Positions 51,892 to 60,032 of a stretch of 62,552 bases of DNA are shown here, one piece after another; the stretch's first letter is position 1, and the number at the start of each line of letters is the position of its first letter. Location: contig JBAZML010000004.1 of the NCBI GenBank assembly GCA_041649835.1, positions 1-62,552 of the forward strand, in the 5' to 3' direction. The position numbers and the translations under genes were made by a program. The notes beneath the pieces were generated by a model that worked only from the letters and a program-made list of their open reading frames with translations, searched no databases and was not told the origin of the DNA. Source of the DNA: Candidatus Shapirobacteria bacterium (lineage in GTDB: Bacteria > Patescibacteriota > Microgenomatia > UBA12405).

Positions 51892-52983
51892 TCAAAATTT
51901 TGCTAGGATTTCAGGTCTAATAATAATTGGATCAATTTGATTTGAAAATATTTCAAATGAATTATATTTTTGGATGGTAATCCCCTTTTGATCTCTTTTG
52001 GTTAATTCCGAACCGATTATATTTTGATTGCTAAATCTTTTTTGTTCCTGAGCAATATCGATTGAGTAATTTAAATTGATAAATTCGGCTAAGTGATAAT
52101 AAAAAAGAGGGGTTAAATTGTTAATTAATTCAATTTGGGTATAAAAAGCAAAAGAAGCGGTCAGACGGGGATTACACTCCAGTAGATAAACCTGATTATC
52201 TGAGACAATAAAGTCTAAACCAAAAAAACCACGATAATTTAATGGTTTTAATATTTTTTCAGAAAAATTGGTAGTGATTTGATTTATTTGTTCCTGAATT
52301 TCCACGGGTGCAAGGGAGGGCCATTGGCGTCCAACTGTGGCAAAAGGATTTTGGGTAAAATCGATTAGACCAGTATATTGAAGTGCCGGAGGACTTTGAA
52401 TTAATCCGTAACGAGTGAGACAACAATTATTTAATAAAGAATAACCTGTTAAAAGCGGCGAAAATTTGGCTAAAGTTTTTTGGGGAATAATAGTTTGAGC
52501 AATTTCATAATTATTGAAATGGTGAGTACTGTTACCTGCCCAACCAAAATGAGTTTGGATAATTAAATTTTCACCGAATTTTTCCTGGGTTTTTTTAAAA
52601 GATTCCTGATTGAATTCCGCAATTATACCCGGTACAACCGGTAATTTATTTTGTTGACATATATCGAAGAATTTAACCTTATCTTCTAAAAATCGGTTCA
52701 TAGAAGCGGCATTACTGGCATTAATCCAGTGATTTTTTAAAGTTAAATGTTCAATTTTAGCGGAAGGTTTAAAAGGAATAATGACGGGTTTTGGAAATAA
52801 TTTTATTTTTTCTTGAATATTATTTTGAGACAAAAGGAAACCGCTATTTTTTATTTTTAAATTATCTTGAAAAATAGACTGAAAATTAGGTAGCTCGGGC
52901 AAATTTATGTCTAAAAATTTGTCGACTACTAAGAAGAAAAAATCGTAACCGGAATTTTTTAATAAATCTTCTAAATGATTCAT
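51892..52983 (-). CDS. ATP-grasp carboxylate-amine ligase of unknown specificity
   Basis: LEDKVKFF, FGWAGNST loop, YRGFFGLDFIV...VYLLECNPR. Confidence 0.82.
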   Translation of the reverse strand: MNHLEDLLKNSGYDFFFLVVDKFLDINLPELPNFQSIFQDNLKIKNSGFLLSQNNIQEKIKLFPKPVIIPFKPSAKIEHLTLKNHWINASNAASMNRFLEDKVKFFDICQQNKLPVVPGIIAEFNQESFKKTQEKFGENLIIQTHFGWAGNSTHHFNNYEIAQTIIPQKTLAKFSPLLTGYSLLNNCCLTRYGLIQSPPALQYTGLIDFTQNPFATVGRQWPSLAPVEIQEQINQITTNFSEKILKPLNYRGFFGLDFIVSDNQVYLLECNPRLTASFAFYTQIELINNLTPLFYYHLAEFINLNYSIDIAQEQKRFSNQNIIGSELTKRDQKGITIQKYNSFEIFSNQIDPIIIRPEILAKF

Positions 52984-53780
52984 AATCTGGCGGTACCGGT
53001 CAACAAAATAACCGGATATTCCCCAACTTCAAAGCTTTTTCGGGCTTCATAGAATGAGGCAAGGGTTAATGCAGATTCGGGAGAAGCTCTAAATTGTTTC
53101 ATAAATTCGAGACAATTGATTGCCTGAGTGTTTTTGACGATAATTCCAATACCTTGATGTTTTTTTATTGCCTGAATAATTTCCTTTTTTAGAGGTAGAT
53201 ATTTGACACTGAGAGCGTCGGTAATAGTTTCTGTTTCTAGTGTATATTGAGGGTCAAAGCTACTACAGATAGTGGGATTACTGGCGGGTTGAGCAGCGAA
53301 AATTTTAACGCTATCGGGCATAATTTTGCTGATTCCCAAAAGGGTGGTGCCGCTGCCGACAGGAATAAAAATACTGGTGATTTGAGGTAATTGGGCTAAT
53401 ATTTCGGTGGTAATTTGACCGTAGCCGGTTTGAGCAGTAATGTCGGTTGATTGACGAAGTAGATATGATTGGTTGGCTTTTGAAAATTTGATGGCATCAC
53501 TAATGGGTTTAAGGGATTCGATAATATGTCCTTTGATAAGGGATAATTTTTTGGGATTAATGTTTGGAGATACAAAAACGGTTAAAGGGATGCTGGCCTG
53601 TTGACAGTAAAAAGAGGCTGAAATAGCAGCGTTGCCAGTAGAGGAAATTACCGCTGATTTAAAGTCATTATTAATTAAATTTTGAACTTGTAAGGGCAAG
53701 GCTCGGTCTTTGGCTGAACCGGTAGGATTTTGATCTTCTCTCTTGAAATAAATTTCATCAATTTTGGTTAAGGGTGTCAT
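52980..53780 (-). CDS. Fold-type II PLP-dependent enzyme (threonine synthase/cysteine synthase-like)
   Basis: KREDQNPTGSAKDR (PLP lysine), SSTGNAA, PVGSGTT phosphate loop, VILLTG. Confidence 0.88.
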   Translation of the reverse strand: MTPLTKIDEIYFKREDQNPTGSAKDRALPLQVQNLINNDFKSAVISSTGNAAISASFYCQQASIPLTVFVSPNINPKKLSLIKGHIIESLKPISDAIKFSKANQSYLLRQSTDITAQTGYGQITTEILAQLPQITSIFIPVGSGTTLLGISKIMPDSVKIFAAQPASNPTICSSFDPQYTLETETITDALSVKYLPLKKEIIQAIKKHQGIGIIVKNTQAINCLEFMKQFRASPESALTLASFYEARKSFEVGEYPVILLTGTARL

Positions 53781-53849: not shown

Positions 53850-54014
53850 ATGTCAGATACTAATAATAAGGTTATTTGTCCTGATTGTCAGGTAGAGATA
53901 GAAAGTGAAACTTTCGGAGTGGGAGATATTCTAGAATGTCAGGAATGTGGAACTGAGGTAGAAATCATATCAATAAATCCGTTACAATATCGTGAATTAG
54001 TTGAGGAGAAGTAA
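53850..54014 (+). CDS. LysW-like small acidic Zn-ribbon (amino-group carrier-like) protein, 54 aa
   Basis: Not in ORF track (under 60 aa). MSDTNNKVICPDCQVEIESETFGVGDILECQECGTEVEIISINPLQYRELVEEK: two CxxC pairs in the LysW pattern (CPxC...GDILxCxxCGxExEx...P.L); ends EEK rather than EDWGE. Confidence 0.82.
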   Translation: MSDTNNKVICPDCQVEIESETFGVGDILECQECGTEVEIISINPLQYRELVEEK

Positions 54015-54542
54015 GCGGTAAGCTCCATCATATTTGAAACTATTATCAGTGATTTCAAACTCTCCATAACGGACTCCCCTACCTAGTCGGGAAGAATCAA
54101 CGTAAATTACCTTGTTACCAATTTTTTCGATAACGAATAAAAGATGGTGGCCATTTTTTTGACGGATTAAATCGGCAGTTTGAATGTCATGAACATCGAT
54201 TCTTTTTGATAGAGGATGTGAGGTAAGCATGTCGGCGGAGATGCGGCGGACATCAAGATTGATAGAAAAATAGAAATTTAAGAGATGACAAGCGAGACCA
54301 GAGCAGTCGATACCTAATTGGTGTTTCTTCTGAAAATTGTAGATTTGTTGAGGACTTAAATCGATTATTTTAATATTCTCATTATTGGCAAATTCAATGG
54401 TTTTTAAGGCTAATTCTTTGGCATTTCCTTTGCCGATTAAAGTATTATCAGATGAAATTTGCTTGGGAATATTAGTGTGATACGGCAAGCCGATGTATTT
54501 TAGAATTTCCTGACGGAGTTCTTCTAGTTTAATCCGAGCCAT
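53997..54542 (-). CDS. NlpC/P60-like (papain-fold) protein
   Basis: YIGLPY...GIDCSGL...ADLI....GHH...VDSS. Confidence 0.75.
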   Translation of the reverse strand: MARIKLEELRQEILKYIGLPYHTNIPKQISSDNTLIGKGNAKELALKTIEFANNENIKIIDLSPQQIYNFQKKHQLGIDCSGLACHLLNFYFSINLDVRRISADMLTSHPLSKRIDVHDIQTADLIRQKNGHHLLFVIEKIGNKVIYVDSSRLGRGVRYGEFEITDNSFKYDGAYRLLLLN

Positions 54543-55558
54543 AATCCAAAAATTGCTAATATGACTGTTGCCAGCCAGGCTCTAAATACTATTTTTGGTT
54601 CTTCCCAACCATTTTTTTGCAGGGTTAAATGAATTGGAGCTGCCGGAAATAATTTTTTATGAAGGTATATTTTACTAAAGATTTGTAAAGCACTAGACAT
54701 ACCTTCGATAATAAATGGGGCGCCAACAATAAACAAAGGAACTACTTTACCTAGTAGTAGAGCGATAACAGCGAAGGTGGCACCAAAAGAGAGAGAACCA
54801 ACATCACCGAGCCAAATACGGGCTGGGTAAACATTGAAATAGAGAAAGGCAATTAAAGATCCTATCCATAAAGATAGAAATAGAGAAATGGGTGTATCCA
54901 ATGAAGTTCCGGCCAAAATCCAAAAGGCAAAAAGGGAAATCATTAAGGTACCACAAGCTAATCCATCTAAACCGTCGGTAATATTGAAAAAATTAGCAAA
55001 AGCAACAATGATTATTGTAGAGATAGGAATAAAAAACAGACCCAGGCTAACGGCGCCGATAAAAGGTAAATAGATAAAATTGATACCAAGTTGAAAGTAA
55101 ATAAGTAAGGAAATAATGGTTGCCAAAACCAACTGAAGTAACAACTTGTATTTCATCCGAAGACCAAAAAATCCGGTATTTTTAAAATTAAAAAACTTGA
55201 GAATATCATCGTAAAGTCCAAGGAGGCCAAAACTTATAAAGGTAAAGAAAATAACGATTAGTTCGTTAATTAAATGATAATTACTGGAAATAAAAAGTCG
55301 TGACATTTTTAAAATTGGGAACAGAAATGAGAACAAAATGACAACGGTGAGAATAATCAAAAGTCCCCCACCAACAGGAGTGCCGCTTTTTTGAGCATGA
55401 AATTTATCAAAAATAGGGGTACTTTTATTTTGAAAATCTAGAGTTGATTGCTTTTGCCGTTGAAATTTTAATCGGTAAAGAAGATTAATATAGGGAACTA
55501 CCAGGATGCTGGTGGCGAGGAAGGAAAACAATAATAGGCCGAGGTATAGGTGGATCAT
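54524..55558 (-). CDS. mraY: Phospho-MurNAc-peptide transferase MraY
   Basis: KSGTPVGGG, GLYDD, NITDGLDGL, WLGDVGS, APIH. Confidence 0.95.
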   Translation of the reverse strand: MIHLYLGLLLFSFLATSILVVPYINLLYRLKFQRQKQSTLDFQNKSTPIFDKFHAQKSGTPVGGGLLIILTVVILFSFLFPILKMSRLFISSNYHLINELIVIFFTFISFGLLGLYDDILKFFNFKNTGFFGLRMKYKLLLQLVLATIISLLIYFQLGINFIYLPFIGAVSLGLFFIPISTIIIVAFANFFNITDGLDGLACGTLMISLFAFWILAGTSLDTPISLFLSLWIGSLIAFLYFNVYPARIWLGDVGSLSFGATFAVIALLLGKVVPLFIVGAPFIIEGMSSALQIFSKIYLHKKLFPAAPIHLTLQKNGWEEPKIVFRAWLATVILAIFGLWLGLN

Positions 55559-56883
55559 GTTTTTATATATTTTATATTAGCACCAAGGGAACAGAGCCGG
55601 TCGGCTAACTTTTCATATCCTCGCTCAATAAATTCAACATTATCGATAATACTTTCACCGTTTGCTGTCAGAGCAGCCAATGTGGCGGTGGCACCAGCCC
55701 TCAAATCGGAGACGGCGATGTGAATTGGTTTTAATTTTGAAGGACCGTATATTTTGACTCCATGAAAATATTCGAGATTATCCGATTCAGGATTAAAATG
55801 GTAGTACTCTGAGGGATTGGTGACTTCCGGATTAAAAAATTTTGTTTTGGCTCCCATCTGATTTAGAGTGCTGATATGTTGAAAACGTGAAGGAAATATT
55901 TTTTCAATAATGGAGCTACAACCAACAGATTGTGTCAGAACCAAACTAAAAATTGCTTGCCAATCGGTCATGAATCCTGGTTCGGGACCGGTTTCAATAT
56001 CAATGGCTTTTAAGTTTTTAACCCAATTTATGGAAATTTCATCTCTACCCCGAATTACTTGTGCCCCCATTAGTTCAATGATTCTTAAAAAAGTTTCAAT
56101 ATTTGTAGGTCTAATCCGCATAATATTAATTGAACCTTTGGTACATAATGCGGCACAGGCAAAGGTTACGGTTTCATTTCGGTCACCGATGATTTGATGT
56201 TCTGTTCCGTTAAGTACTGAAACGCCTTTGATATAAATTTTTTTTGGATCAGAGGTGTCCCGTTTTATCTTGGCCCCCATGTCATTTAACATTTCAATGA
56301 GATCATCTATTTCTGGCTCTAGGGCGGCATTTCTAATAACTGTTTCACCATTGGCAACAGCGGCCGTCATGATTACCACTTCGGTGACAGTGTGGGATGG
56401 TTTTGGAAATTCAAAATCGGTTGCTTGAATTCCGGAAGTAGTGAAACGTAAATGATCAGAAAACTCTTCGACATTAATATTCATTTTTTTGTAACATTCG
56501 AAAAGCCGATCAAGAGGTCTGGCACCCAATTTGTCACCACCTGGAATTGGGACGATAGCTTCGCCACAACGAGCCAATAAAGGAGCGGCGAACATAAATG
56601 AGGAACGGGAAACATTTCCGGTACCGTGTGGAACAACCGATGAGTTAATTTTATTGGTGGTGATTTCCAAGCTGTGAGTGCCGGTATAATTTATCGTTGA
56701 ACCCATTGATTTGGCGATACTTTCGGTAATATGAACATCTGATATGCAGGGAACATTGAGTAAATGAGTAGTCTCTTTGGATAGAAGACTGGCAATTATT
56801 TGTTTAAATGAAGCATTTTTGGCACCTCGGATGGAAACTTCACCATTTAGTGGTTTACCACCATTAATAATATATCGGGACAT
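55555..56883 (-). CDS. murA: UDP-GlcNAc 1-carboxyvinyltransferase
   Basis: GAKNA, PGGDKLGARP (Asp at the Cys115 position), EPEIDDL, PGFMTD, DLRAGA, RGYE. Confidence 0.93.
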   Translation of the reverse strand: MSRYIINGGKPLNGEVSIRGAKNASFKQIIASLLSKETTHLLNVPCISDVHITESIAKSMGSTINYTGTHSLEITTNKINSSVVPHGTGNVSRSSFMFAAPLLARCGEAIVPIPGGDKLGARPLDRLFECYKKMNINVEEFSDHLRFTTSGIQATDFEFPKPSHTVTEVVIMTAAVANGETVIRNAALEPEIDDLIEMLNDMGAKIKRDTSDPKKIYIKGVSVLNGTEHQIIGDRNETVTFACAALCTKGSINIMRIRPTNIETFLRIIELMGAQVIRGRDEISINWVKNLKAIDIETGPEPGFMTDWQAIFSLVLTQSVGCSSIIEKIFPSRFQHISTLNQMGAKTKFFNPEVTNPSEYYHFNPESDNLEYFHGVKIYGPSKLKPIHIAVSDLRAGATATLAALTANGESIIDNVEFIERGYEKLADRLCSLGANIKYIKT

Positions 56884-58181
56884 TATTTATTATTTTTGTA
56901 TAAATTAATAATTTTTTGAAATATTTTTAGACCATCAGAACCACCAGAACTAAAGTGTACCAGTATGTCACCAGTTTTTAGACTATTTTGGTAATGTTTT
57001 ACAATCTCTTCCGGAATAGGTAAATAAATACTACGGGGAATAATATTTAAGAAATCTTTGGCAATGAGACGGTCGGATTGTTTTATCTTGGAATTGAATT
57101 TTAATTTATAGATTACTGTTTCAGTGGCAAGTTCAAAAGATGGTAATAAAAGGTTTAAATTGGAACGATATTGCATAAATGAGGCGTGATTTTCATAAAA
57201 AACTTTTAATCTCGATTGGGGATGGGTATCTTTTATGGCTTTGAGTGCAGCACCAATTCTGTCGGCTGATTGGGCAAAATCATCGATAAAGATTATTCCT
57301 TTATTATTTCCAACCACTTCTAAACGTCTTTTTATACCTTTAAAATTTTTGAAACTTCTCTTTATTGATTCTGAAGATATCTTGAGCTTATTTGCCAAGG
57401 TTTCAACTGCCCCTAGATTTTCCTGATTATGTTTGCCTAACAACTGATTGGATATTTTGGTTTCACTGTAGGGTATTTTTTGACATTTGGCGAAACTAAG
57501 CAAAGGTAAAATTAAGGTATCATTTGAATTGTAAATTAAAAGACCATCTTTGGGGATGTTCTCTACCAATTGTTTGAAAGCATTAAAATTTTCGTTTTCA
57601 TTAGAATAACTTTCCCGATGTTCCCATTTGGCACTGGTTAGGATTAGGTATTTGACAGGGTAATATAAAAATTTAGCTTTGGTATCAAGTCCATTTATTG
57701 ATTCGTCGGCTTCGACAACTGACCAATTTGAATTGGAAAAATGGAGAGAATCTAAGCGATTAAGGCTTTGACCTCCAATCATGTAAGCAGGGTCATAATT
57801 AGCATTTTTAAGCAAATAAGTGACGGCAGCAGTAATGGTGGTTTTGCCATAAGACCCGGCAATTAAAATGGAGTTGTTCTTAATTAGGTTTTGGGAAATG
57901 TATTGAGTGGCGGAAATGTAGGGAATTTTTTGAATTTTTATATCTTCAAAATCTGTCTGAGTATTATGGAATGAAGCATAGGATGAACCGATAATAGCTA
58001 AATCAATCTGAGAATTAATCTCTGTCTGATTTATGGGAATGTTGGCTTTTTTTAGTTGTTTATTGAAAGGCGGATAGGTTTTTTCCTGATCTGACCCGCT
58101 TATTTGATGACCTTGTTTTTGTAGAGCTAAGGCAAGTGGCGCTGTCATGGAACCGGCAATGCCAACAAGGTGTATATGCAT
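56883..58181 (-). CDS. MurC-family ligase, Mpl-like (UDP-MurNAc:peptide ligase)
   Basis: IHLVGIAGS, GSDQEKTYPP (Mpl-type GSDxxxYPP), AGSYGKTT, VEADE, GIKRRLE, DDFAQ. Confidence 0.75.
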   Translation of the reverse strand: MHIHLVGIAGSMTAPLALALQKQGHQISGSDQEKTYPPFNKQLKKANIPINQTEINSQIDLAIIGSSYASFHNTQTDFEDIKIQKIPYISATQYISQNLIKNNSILIAGSYGKTTITAAVTYLLKNANYDPAYMIGGQSLNRLDSLHFSNSNWSVVEADESINGLDTKAKFLYYPVKYLILTSAKWEHRESYSNENENFNAFKQLVENIPKDGLLIYNSNDTLILPLLSFAKCQKIPYSETKISNQLLGKHNQENLGAVETLANKLKISSESIKRSFKNFKGIKRRLEVVGNNKGIIFIDDFAQSADRIGAALKAIKDTHPQSRLKVFYENHASFMQYRSNLNLLLPSFELATETVIYKLKFNSKIKQSDRLIAKDFLNIIPRSIYLPIPEEIVKHYQNSLKTGDILVHFSSGGSDGLKIFQKIINLYKNNK

Positions 58182-58183
58182 AT

Positions 58184-58786
58184 CTATTGATTATATGACA
58201 ACCACTGCCCTTGAGTAAAATACTGGAATCCTGGGAAATTTCTTTTGTAGTAGCCAAGCTTGGTTTTGGCATTAAAACGTCCCAAGTAACAATACTTTAA
58301 CTTTGAATTAAAACTATCAGTAACTAACTGGAGGGAGAGTCTAATGGGTAAATCATTGTGAGCTAATTTGGGATTATAAAAAACATAGGCTATATGAGAG
58401 ATATTTTTATCGATATAGCAAATTGAGTAGGCACAAATTTGCTTATCCTGGTCATACCATTCATATAGATAGTTAAAAATATGATTGATGAATACGGTTT
58501 TTATTGAGGATACTGGGAATTCCCAACCCAATTCTTTGACCCAACTGACAAGTTGTTTTTGAATTTTGGGAGTATATAAAAACTCAGATAGAGGAATTAG
58601 TTTGTAGGTAAAATTTTCGGTTTTTTTGATAATTCTTCTGTTTTCTGATGATAATTGAAATAAATTCAAATTGCATCGAGAACTGGAATTTTCATCAATG
58701 TAAAAAGTATGTTTGGAATTTCGTTGTGGTAAAAGACCATTTTGATAATTTTCTTCAATCGAATGATCGTTTTGGATATTATACAT
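58184..58786 (-). CDS. Bpt/ATE-like aminoacyl-tRNA-dependent transferase
   Basis: SR..LNLFQLSSENRRIIKK, YVFYNP.L...L, YCYLG....GYYK..F align by eye with the ATE_N/ATE_C pattern of Bpt. Start moved to MYNIQ, overlapping the murE stop. Confidence 0.65.
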   Translation of the reverse strand: MYNIQNDHSIEENYQNGLLPQRNSKHTFYIDENSSSRCNLNLFQLSSENRRIIKKTENFTYKLIPLSEFLYTPKIQKQLVSWVKELGWEFPVSSIKTVFINHIFNYLYEWYDQDKQICAYSICYIDKNISHIAYVFYNPKLAHNDLPIRLSLQLVTDSFNSKLKYCYLGRFNAKTKLGYYKRNFPGFQYFTQGQWLSYNQ

Positions 58787-60032
58787 TTTGAGATTTAAGC
58801 CGAAAGGCAGTTCTAAAAGCTTCGGCTTCTGACCAGGGATATTCAGTGGAGCCATGAAGAATACTAGTTTCATGACCTTTGCCACAGGCGATAATAGTGT
58901 CCCCTGCTTTGGCGATTTTAATTGCTAGGTTGAAGGCATCCTGACGGTTGGGAATATTGGCATAATGAAATTTACTTGGGTCGGTAATAATCGGATTCAA
59001 TGAATCAATTAAAATTGATTTTTGAAGATTAATCCCGGAAATTATTTGTTGATTTATATCTTCGACTTTTTCATTTCTGGTATCGTCAGCAGTAATAATG
59101 GCAATATCTGACAATTCAGATACATTTTTTCCCATTATGGGCCTTTTACTTTTGTCCCGGCCACCGGTAGCTCCAAAAATAACAATTATTCTACCTTTGG
59201 TAGTGAGACGAAGAGAGGAAAGGGTAACCAAAAGAGCGTTGGGAGTATGGGCAAAATCAATGATTGTCTTTAGATGAAGACTGTTTTCAATTATTTCTCG
59301 ACGACCTTTAGTTTCGGGAAATTTGATAATTGTTTGAGAGAATATTTTTGGATCAAGGTTTAATTTTGAAAATACAGCAAAACTAGCCAGAATATTATAG
59401 ATTTGATATTCATAATTACTGTCGGTAGTTAGCTTATGATCATTTACGGTAAAGTTTAGGGTATTGGAATCGATTTCTATATTTTTGGCAGTAAAATCGG
59501 ATTTATTTTTTATACTATATGTTGAAACCGGAATAGTAATCATTTTACTTAGTGCCTGATATTGAGAGTCATCACGGTTAATGACACCGAAGTCAGATTG
59601 TGAAAAGAGTTTGGCTTTGGTAGCGGTGTAATTTTCAATTGTTTTGTGGTAATCAAGGTGCTCGTGAGAAATATTGGTTATCAAACTTATTTTAAAATGA
59701 CAGCCAAAATATCGATATTGATCAATGGCGTGTGAGGTGACCTCGCAAATGACATGGGTATAACCATTTTTTTGGTAATCCAAAAACATTTGTTGAAGTA
59801 TTTTGGGATCAGGACTGGTGGTGTGTAGGCCAGGAGAACTTATGGTACTAATGACTCCACATTTTATACCGCTGTTTTCCAATAGTTTTTGTAATAAGGT
59901 ACAGGTAGTAGTTTTACCGTCAGTTCCGGTGACTCCAATTAGAATAAGTTTACGGCTAGGAAATTTAAAATATAGATTCCAAAATATGCTTTGAGGTAAG
60001 TGCCAAAGGAGATTTTTTAATTTACGAATCAT
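58779..60032 (-). CDS. murE: UDP-MurNAc-dipeptide--diamino acid ligase MurE
   Basis: GVTGTDGKTT, CEVTSH, TNISHEHLDYH, IDFAHTP, FGATGGRDKSKRPIMG, DDTR, GKGHE. Confidence 0.9.
   Translation of the reverse strand: MIRKLKNLLWHLPQSIFWNLYFKFPSRKLILIGVTGTDGKTTTCTLLQKLLENSGIKCGVISTISSPGLHTTSPDPKILQQMFLDYQKNGYTHVICEVTSHAIDQYRYFGCHFKISLITNISHEHLDYHKTIENYTATKAKLFSQSDFGVINRDDSQYQALSKMITIPVSTYSIKNKSDFTAKNIEIDSNTLNFTVNDHKLTTDSNYEYQIYNILASFAVFSKLNLDPKIFSQTIIKFPETKGRREIIENSLHLKTIIDFAHTPNALLVTLSSLRLTTKGRIIVIFGATGGRDKSKRPIMGKNVSELSDIAIITADDTRNEKVEDINQQIISGINLQKSILIDSLNPIITDPSKFHYANIPNRQDAFNLAIKIAKAGDTIIACGKGHETSILHGSTEYPWSEAEAFRTAFRLKSQNV

Follow-up and report, generated by a model that had tools for sequence, protein, structure and literature searches.

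An ATE/Bpt-fold aminoacyl-tRNA transferase homologue paired with an Mpl-type ligase in Patescibacteria without MurC and MurD: a candidate enzyme of wall-precursor synthesis

The ligase series from MurC to MurF is treated as universal for peptidoglycan, and its members are drug targets. Peptide bonds on wall precursors are also formed by the tRNA-dependent, ribosome-independent enzymes of the FemX, FemABX and MurM type, which add side-chain branches. Mpl, encoded by a recycling gene, ligates pre-formed peptides; the classical enzyme prefers tripeptides, and Psychrobacter Mpl makes weak use of L-Ala-D-Glu and L-Ala (PMC3060825). Bacterial Bpt (leucyl-tRNA-protein transferase, for N-terminal Asp or Glu) and eukaryotic ATE1 (arginyl-tRNA-protein transferase) use the alpha-amines of Asp or Glu as acceptors (PMC9351520). 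The present analysis concerns a gene for a small homologue of Bpt and ATE1, here called ATE-like, in a 62,552-nucleotide stretch of DNA from a Candidatus Shapirobacteria bacterium (contig JBAZML010000004.1, assembly GCA_041649835.1); this whole stretch is referred to as the window. A sequence-only reading had proposed an N-end-rule enzyme repurposed either as a Fem-like peptidoglycan aminoacyl transferase or as a substitute for MurF.

The ATE-like enzyme is likely a wall-precursor aminoacyl-tRNA (aa-tRNA) transferase that works together with the Mpl-type ligase encoded beside it. The evidence points to a step that the sequence-only reading had not considered, namely the backbone bond between residues 1 and 2 of the stem peptide. 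With a probability that we put at roughly 0.55, the enzyme would transfer L-Ala from Ala-tRNA to the amine of Glu, forming the bond of MurD, and the Mpl-type ligase would load the resulting dipeptide onto UDP-MurNAc. The kind of enzyme (ATE/Bpt) is a known one, and its role in the pathway is plausibly new; a literature search found no paper on an ATE-type enzyme in Mur operons or on a route without MurC and MurD.

The genome to which the window belongs is 99.7% complete and contains only four genes of the Mur-ligase type, corresponding to MurE, the partner ligase, FolC and a MurF located next to alr on contig C13. The MurF-substitute idea fails because MurF is encoded there; relatives carry murF inside the same cluster as the ATE-like gene. 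Profile searches found neither MurI nor MurD in this genome, the best MurD matches (88 and 64 bits) being cross-matches to MurE and to the adjacent ligase. A canonical MurC is lacking as well. The distribution of the gene was determined in a class sample of 301 genomes and in a phylum sample, which added other classes and was searched with a broader ATE-like profile. The gene was present in 32 of the 301 genomes; the window's family contributed all of its 19, and the rest came from seven other families. MurD scored over its curated cut-off in none of these 32 carriers compared to 211 of the 269 non-carriers (Fisher p = 1.7e-19, not corrected for phylogeny). The phylum sample yielded 18 more carriers from seven families of other classes, all of them without MurD (best matches <=91 bits). 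Canonical MurC over the TIGR01082 cut-off was found in none of the 50 carriers and in nine of ten control genomes. MurI exceeded its cut-off in no carrier; as it passed in only 81 of the 301 class-sample genomes, its absence was rejected as a specific correlate of carriage. In the carriers, every stem-peptide bond has an enzyme assigned except that between L-Ala and Glu.

Fold and core motifs place the protein in the ATE/Bpt superfamily, in a trimmed form, and the similarity is more than chance. Pfam ATE_C (PF04377) matched with 25.4 bits, just over its cut-off of 25 (E 2.3e-5), and six NCBIfam arginyltransferase (Bpt) models matched residues 35-198 (best E 3.6e-7), although the top score of 29.9 bits is approximately an order of magnitude below the equivalog cut-offs of these models (170-358 bits). 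ATE_N (PF04376) was absent from the Pfam matches, and FemAB (PF02388) was unmatched at E<=1. Aligned by hhalign to a Bpt-like set, the ATE-like family gave a probability of 99.6% and an E-value of 2.9e-24 over 167 columns (residues 35-200). When the family profile was run against PDB sequences alone, nothing relevant was returned, and a structural search was therefore needed. The AlphaFold2 model, built from 55 homologues, is a single domain with a predicted local distance difference test score (pLDDT) of 94.3 and a predicted TM-score (pTM) of 0.90. Searched against the PDB with Foldseek, it matched best to human, yeast and K. lactis ATE1 (E 3.5e-9, TM-score on query 0.70-0.74), then to MprF/aa-PGS and then to FemX (rank 49, E 2.4e-5), all of which are aa-tRNA transferases.

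The motifs named in the sequence-only reading were found at F136-Y137-N138-P139, Y167-L168-G169 and Y180-K181 and are mostly invariant across the family. Residues invariant in the family include G17, R37, S47-E48-N49, R51, F136, Y167-L168-G169, Y180-K181 and W195; the Tyr-Lys pair and the SSENRR motif have been retained despite only 26-35% identity. The Cys-rich N-terminal motif is indeed lacking, with no conserved Cys in the first 35 residues of an alignment of 40 diverse members. The family is small, matching 214 of 1.84 billion 50%-identity cluster representatives at E<=1e-3, and forms a clade of its own in the tree, on a long branch away from the Bpt-like proteins. Outside Shapirobacteria the usual form is approximately 260 amino acids (aa) long, being extended by an FPYQV segment at the N-terminus and by a tail at the C-terminus, and again has no Cys motif. 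The representative search also returned P0173 (809 aa), a distant member fused to PPDK_N and PEP-utilizers domains of the phosphoenolpyruvate (PEP)-synthase/phosphotransferase type, an unrelated architecture.

The gene is real, and its start is coupled to murE as had been read from the sequence: its ATG (58786-58784) and the TAA stop of murE (58781-58779) both lie inside ATGTATAA, giving an overlap of 8 nucleotides (nt). At the other end, its stop codon (58186-58184) is 2 nt ahead of the ATG of the ligase gene (58181). Although a longer frame opens with a GTG at 58885, the homologue alignment of about 500 sequences begins at the ATG-encoded Met. The gene is under selection, with 516 homologues of approximately 200 aa found at E<=1e-3.

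The coupling extends well beyond the window. ATE-like genes are locked into division and cell wall (dcw) clusters in no fewer than 15 GTDB families, a context that favours a peptidoglycan role over an N-degron role and supports this part of the sequence-only reading. The order murE, ATE-like gene, ligase is kept in 15 of 17 class loci, and in other classes the ATE-like gene is directly upstream of the same type of ligase in 10 of 12 loci, often in the arrangement ATP-grasp, P60-like, mraY, ATE-like, ligase, LysW-like and pyridoxal phosphate (PLP) enzyme. The two genes are fused in at least two lineages. One fusion, P0121 (645 aa), was found on three contigs, which come from two or more assemblies and show the same dcw context, and the other is a 688-aa open reading frame (ORF) of the closed genome G581 with ATE_C and the N, M and C domains of a Mur ligase. 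The ATE-like tree and the ligase tree recovered the same major clades.

The partner ligase appears to have an affinity to Mpl. In a maximum-likelihood tree, 26 ATE-adjacent ligases formed one clade (96/90) that was sister to E. coli Mpl (ultrafast bootstrap 98, Shimodaira-Hasegawa approximate likelihood-ratio test 95), and E. coli MurC grouped with the MurC of MurD-containing genomes and of family f37 genomes of the candidate phyla radiation (CPR) (94/97). The motif GSD-x(2-4)-[YF]PP is present in all 26 partner ligases and in Mpl and in none of the six MurC sequences compared. The ligase is likened to Mpl also by its presumed use of a pre-formed peptide. It differs from Mpl in being a biosynthetic enzyme encoded inside the dcw cluster, in falling below the TIGR01081 cut-off and in its predicted substrate, which is likely a dipeptide and not a tripeptide.

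For the donor, residues were mapped from the ATE-like family to the Bpt-like protein P0245 (by hhalign) and from there to S. cerevisiae ATE1; the alignments are chained and of moderate confidence. Y180-K181 map to Tyr303-Lys304 of K. lactis Ate1, of which Lys304 is the proposed stabiliser of the reaction intermediate (PMC9351520). The Arg-binding residues S255, S273, E277 and Y289 of K. lactis Ate1 correspond to I132, L150, V/L154 and C166, so that apolar side chains occupy all four pocket positions and exceed in bulk the A, A, Q and L of Bpt, and the equivalent of Glu277 (V/L154) is not acidic. By this mapping the donor pocket appears apolar and filled; it fits a small apolar donor and would exclude Arg, given these apolar positions and the loss of Glu277. 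The ATE-like protein shares with Bpt and ATE1 a GNAT (GCN5-related N-acetyltransferase)-derived fold, the Y-K, YLG, F-Y-x-P and SSENRR-type motifs and, presumably, an aa-tRNA donor and the amine of an acidic residue as acceptor. It differs in its length of only 200-260 aa without the ATE_N Cys/zinc-finger region, in its pocket, in its long-branch clade and in its place in the dcw cluster, where it is paired or fused with a Mur ligase in organisms without ClpS. It lacks the ATE_N/Cys feature, the equivalog-level scores, the Arg pocket and the ClpS context, and it is not a member of FemABX.

An aa-tRNA transferase can acylate only an amine, and UDP-MurNAc-L-Ala has none; the ATE-like enzyme therefore cannot extend UDP-MurNAc-L-Ala. 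In the proposed scheme, the donor of the enzyme would instead be a tRNA charged with a small apolar L-amino acid, most likely L-Ala-tRNA(Ala), and the aminoacyl group would pass to the alpha-amine of residue 2. This residue would be Glu, which could be free or bound to the LysW-like carrier protein of the cluster. The product would be the L-Ala to Glu peptide bond normally made by MurD with ATP. The Mpl-type ligase would join this pre-formed peptide to UDP-MurNAc, and MurE and MurF would complete the pentapeptide, such that transferase and ligase together would replace MurC and MurD. This order of Ala-tRNA and Glu, Mpl-type ligase, MurE and MurF is the most economical scheme and uses every retained gene. 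The ATE-like enzyme and MurD, mutually exclusive across genomes, would then make the same bond with unrelated folds, the former using a tRNA ester in place of an acyl phosphate and acting before rather than after attachment to UDP-MurNAc.

Family f37 provided a natural control. An orthologue of the ATP-grasp ligase of the window's cluster was found in all 32 class carriers and in all 19 f37 genomes, the latter without an ATE-like gene. This family keeps a canonical murC with pgeF and has neither an ATE-like gene nor MurI. It also has a divergent MurD-like gene, below the MurD cut-off (162-188 bits), located approximately 1.3-1.4 kb upstream of the ATP-grasp gene. Family f37 is a second variant of the rewired pathway, and the half made up of carrier, PLP enzyme and ATP-grasp can work with either MurC plus the MurD-like protein or the ATE-like plus Mpl-type pair. 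The job of MurC and MurD is therefore assigned to the ATE-like and Mpl-type pair, and the two pairs look like alternatives. Other assignments were considered. The ATP-grasp ligase as a replacement for Ddl is contradicted by family f15, where canonical Ddl and MurB are found inside the cluster, and its assignment as a replacement for MurD is weakened by its presence in f37 together with MurC and the MurD-like gene. Nor does the murE-murC gap of f37 hide a divergent ATE-like gene, as the gene within it is PgeF/YfiH-like.

How the remaining module genes might contribute is more tentative. A carrier-based route, in which the stem is assembled in a tRNA- and carrier-protein-dependent manner, or its MurNAc-Ala-tRNA variant, is possible, though we consider the odds to be against it. 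In the five-step form, the ATP-grasp ligase would tether Glu through its carboxyl group to the invariant C-terminal Lys of the LysW-like carrier, the PLP enzyme would epimerise the tethered Glu, the ATE-derived transferase would build L-Ala-D-Glu on the carrier with Ala-tRNA, the P60-like peptidase would release the dipeptide, and the Mpl-type ligase would load it onto UDP-MurNAc. In the variant, the ligase would first N-acylate Ala-tRNA with UDP-MurNAc and the transferase would then move MurNAc-Ala onto D-Glu.

Several observations weigh against transfer of L-Ala to Glu followed by Mpl-type ligation. Support for the transfer activity is computational, from sequence, gene context and a model. 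The residues that ATE/Bpt enzymes are known to accept are in the L-form and part of peptides, unlike free D-Glu. Donor and acceptor were deduced from alignments chained through two intermediates; residues 1-34, the N-terminal acceptor region, do not align to ATE_N, and any equivalence of R22 to K. lactis R80, or of Y29 to Y87, is guesswork. As for the ligase, the NCBIfam murC model scored it higher (201 bits) than the mpl model TIGR01081 (154 bits, cut-off 388.7), neither cut-off being reached. The tree contained a single, long-branched Mpl sequence, and an approximately unbiased (AU) test intended to exclude an affinity to MurC was not significant, the alternative placement not being rejected (p = 0.109). 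The Mpl-specific (S/T)AFFDKRSK is not conserved in the partner ligase clade, where only the insertion and K-F remain, and AFFDKRSK was dropped as a test of Mpl membership. The MurD anticorrelation lacks phylogenetic correction and may reflect few evolutionary events. Among the sampled genomes, 37 had neither MurD nor the ATE-like gene; 20 of these also lacked MurE and the other 17, with MurE, had unusual or partial clusters, which indicates that other routes or salvage exist. Finally, one genome, G065 (96% complete, 4% contamination), has an ATE-like gene, located away from murE (L045:8751-9566), yet no Mpl-type ligase was detected in it at E<1e-25.

Four other explanations were weighed against this proposal. 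The Fem-like role of the sequence-only reading would place the transfer from aa-tRNA on the side-chain amine of residue 3, or on a bridge residue, of UDP-MurNAc-pentapeptide or lipid II, and the Mpl-type ligase would receive its L-Ala-D-Glu from another module enzyme, for example from the ATP-grasp enzyme if this were a dipeptide ligase. There is known precedent for tRNA-dependent wall branching; FemX is in the same structural superfamily and among the Foldseek matches (E about 2e-5), the gene is in the dcw cluster, and ATP-grasp is always present in carriers. Like the Fem enzymes, the ATE-like protein is predicted to form peptide bonds on wall precursors from tRNA. However, it has one domain rather than two and no PF02388 match, its strict pairing and fusion is with a cytoplasmic Mpl-type ligase and not with MraY or MurG, and the proposed bond is in the stem backbone and not in a side-chain branch. 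The coexistence of ATP-grasp with MurC and the MurD-like gene in f37 means that ATP-grasp does not replace MurD, and the perfect exclusion with MurD and MurC, to whose loss the ATE-like gene is tied, would be left unexplained. This role is not favoured and is considered unlikely. A salvage variant would form the same bond in another setting: the P60-like peptidase and the transferase would re-tailor wall fragments scavenged from the host or the cell itself, for instance by adding L-Ala from tRNA onto gamma-D-Glu-diamino-acid, and the Mpl-type ligase would re-attach a tripeptide or longer peptide. The tripeptide preference of classical Mpl (PMC3060825) would suit this, as would the lack of amino-acid biosynthesis and MurI in CPR bacteria and the presence in the module of a cytoplasmic NlpC/P60-like protein, fused to the ligase in G383. 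Ligation of tripeptides would, however, make MurE redundant, and MurE is present in 14 of 14 carrier genomes tested and adjoins the gene throughout the class sample; moreover, the carrier, ATP-grasp and PLP enzyme look biosynthetic. Salvage is ranked as quite unlikely, below the Fem-like role.

The ATE-like enzyme might also act on proteins, aminoacylating an N-terminus or a Lys so as to regulate the target or mark it for degradation; the target could be, for example, a division protein or the LysW-like carrier. The family is known to modify protein N-termini, as Bpt and ATE1 do (PMC9351520), and the cluster includes a gene for a small carrier protein. ClpS (PF02617) reached its cut-off in 0 of 50 carriers, which makes involvement in an N-degron pathway unlikely. 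The protein also has no ATE_N Cys domain, the window's LysW-like carrier starts with MSDT... and not with Asp or Glu, and modification of a protein would explain neither the loss of MurC and MurD nor the fusion to a Mur ligase; we regard a protein substrate as highly unlikely. A non-catalytic partner, whose degenerate ATE fold would do no more than scaffold the Mpl-type ligase or set its specificity, would be in keeping with the trimmed N-terminus and the very low scores against curated ATE/Bpt models. Such a protein would not be expected to keep the Tyr-Lys pair and SSENRR invariant over a divergence to 26-35% identity, nor a very confidently predicted fold with an intact cleft region, and this explanation is the least probable of the four, with very little weight given to it. 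Transfer of L-Ala to Glu ahead of the Mpl-type ligase is the preferred explanation of the paired genes.

The positions of the ATE-like gene, of the module genes around it and of the f37 loci are listed in Table 1. On the minus strand of the window, the cluster runs rsmH, ftsL, ftsI-type penicillin-binding protein (PBP), murE, ATE-like gene, MurC/Mpl-like ligase, murA and mraY, followed by the NlpC/P60-like gene, the LysW-like zinc ribbon (plus strand), the PLP enzyme, ATP-grasp, ftsW, murG, ftsA and ftsZ.

Table 1. Locations of the ATE-like gene, its cluster neighbours in the window and the MurD-like/ATP-grasp loci of family f37.
Feature	Position	Strand	Description
ATE-like transferase gene (P0001)	58786 to 58184	minus	ORF, 200 aa; ATE/Bpt-fold aminoacyl-tRNA transferase homologue without ATE_N Cys motif
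MurE	58779..60032	minus	417 aa, without N-terminal domain 1; stop overlaps transferase start; Pfam and NCBIfam
Mpl-type UDP-MurNAc ligase	56883..58181	minus	432 aa; Mur_ligase N, M and C domains; GSD-x-YPP motif; conserved, sometimes fused partner of the transferase
mraY and murA	54524..56883	minus	canonical, between the module halves; NCBIfam
NlpC/P60-like (DCSG) protein, cytoplasmic	53997..54542	minus	weak Pfam match; syntenic in carriers
LysW-like zinc-ribbon carrier protein	53850..54014	plus	Pfam Zn_ribbon_LysW 35.9 bits, cut-off 27; ends -EEK
Fold-type II PLP enzyme	52980..53780	minus	266 aa; Pfam PALP E 6.5e-38; syntenic in carriers
ATP-grasp ligase	51892..52983	minus	363 aa; Pfam ATP-grasp_3
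MurD-like/ATP-grasp loci of family f37	G036:C6:18812-22049; G160:C23:19188-22585		

Control clusters with MurD contained murE, (pgeF), murC, murB, murA, murF, mraY, murD and ftsW, and none of the extra module genes. The LysW-like protein has the C-terminal sequence E-(E/G)-K across 20 related loci, and in these and in the window its last residue is always Lys (…EEK, …DEGK, …VEK); its gene frequently runs opposite to its neighbours and separates mraY or the P60-like gene from that of the PLP enzyme. In G383 (L084:7386-9473), a 695-aa ORF comprises the Mpl-type ligase with an NlpC/P60-like domain fused C-terminally, and a possible second case is a similar 704-aa open frame in G441 (C54).

Within family f4, G213 (L046) is the only sampled genome that has the ATE-like gene, Mpl-type ligase, P60-like protein, PLP enzyme and ATP-grasp and is without MurD, the other sampled f4 genomes being mostly with MurD and often with MurI. 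This suggests that the module was acquired as a unit.

MurE lacks its N-terminal (UDP-binding) domain 1 in most sampled Microgenomatia, with or without MurD, and full-length matches were obtained only in G045, G007, G213 and G038. The truncation was rejected as a correlate of carriage, the same form (profile start ~58-85) being found in MurD-containing relatives, among them G028, G008, G025 and G003; because it also occurs in genomes with MurD, it is uninformative about a peptide-first pathway specific to carriers. In three loci of family f8 (L058, L062 and L056, of G120, G042 and G253) and in L052 of G051, the dcw cluster has MurE, MurF, MraY, FtsW and MurG, and no MurC, MurD or ATE-like gene was seen within it. 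Some of these genomes have a short (~190 aa) MurB-like ORF after murE. These clusters could represent salvage or another route.

If the proposed transfer is correct, charged tRNA and an N-degron-type enzyme form the initial bond of the stem peptide in a large share of the CPR/Patescibacteria. This would be a second, non-orthologous solution to an essential step and a new biological role for the ATE/Bpt family. Translation would be tied to the backbone of the wall peptide and not just to cross-bridges of Fem type, and metabolic reconstructions would have to reread the “missing murC/murD” of CPR genomes. Should the carrier-based route or its variant hold, it would be the first case of a peptidoglycan stem backbone assembled with the help of both tRNA and a carrier protein.

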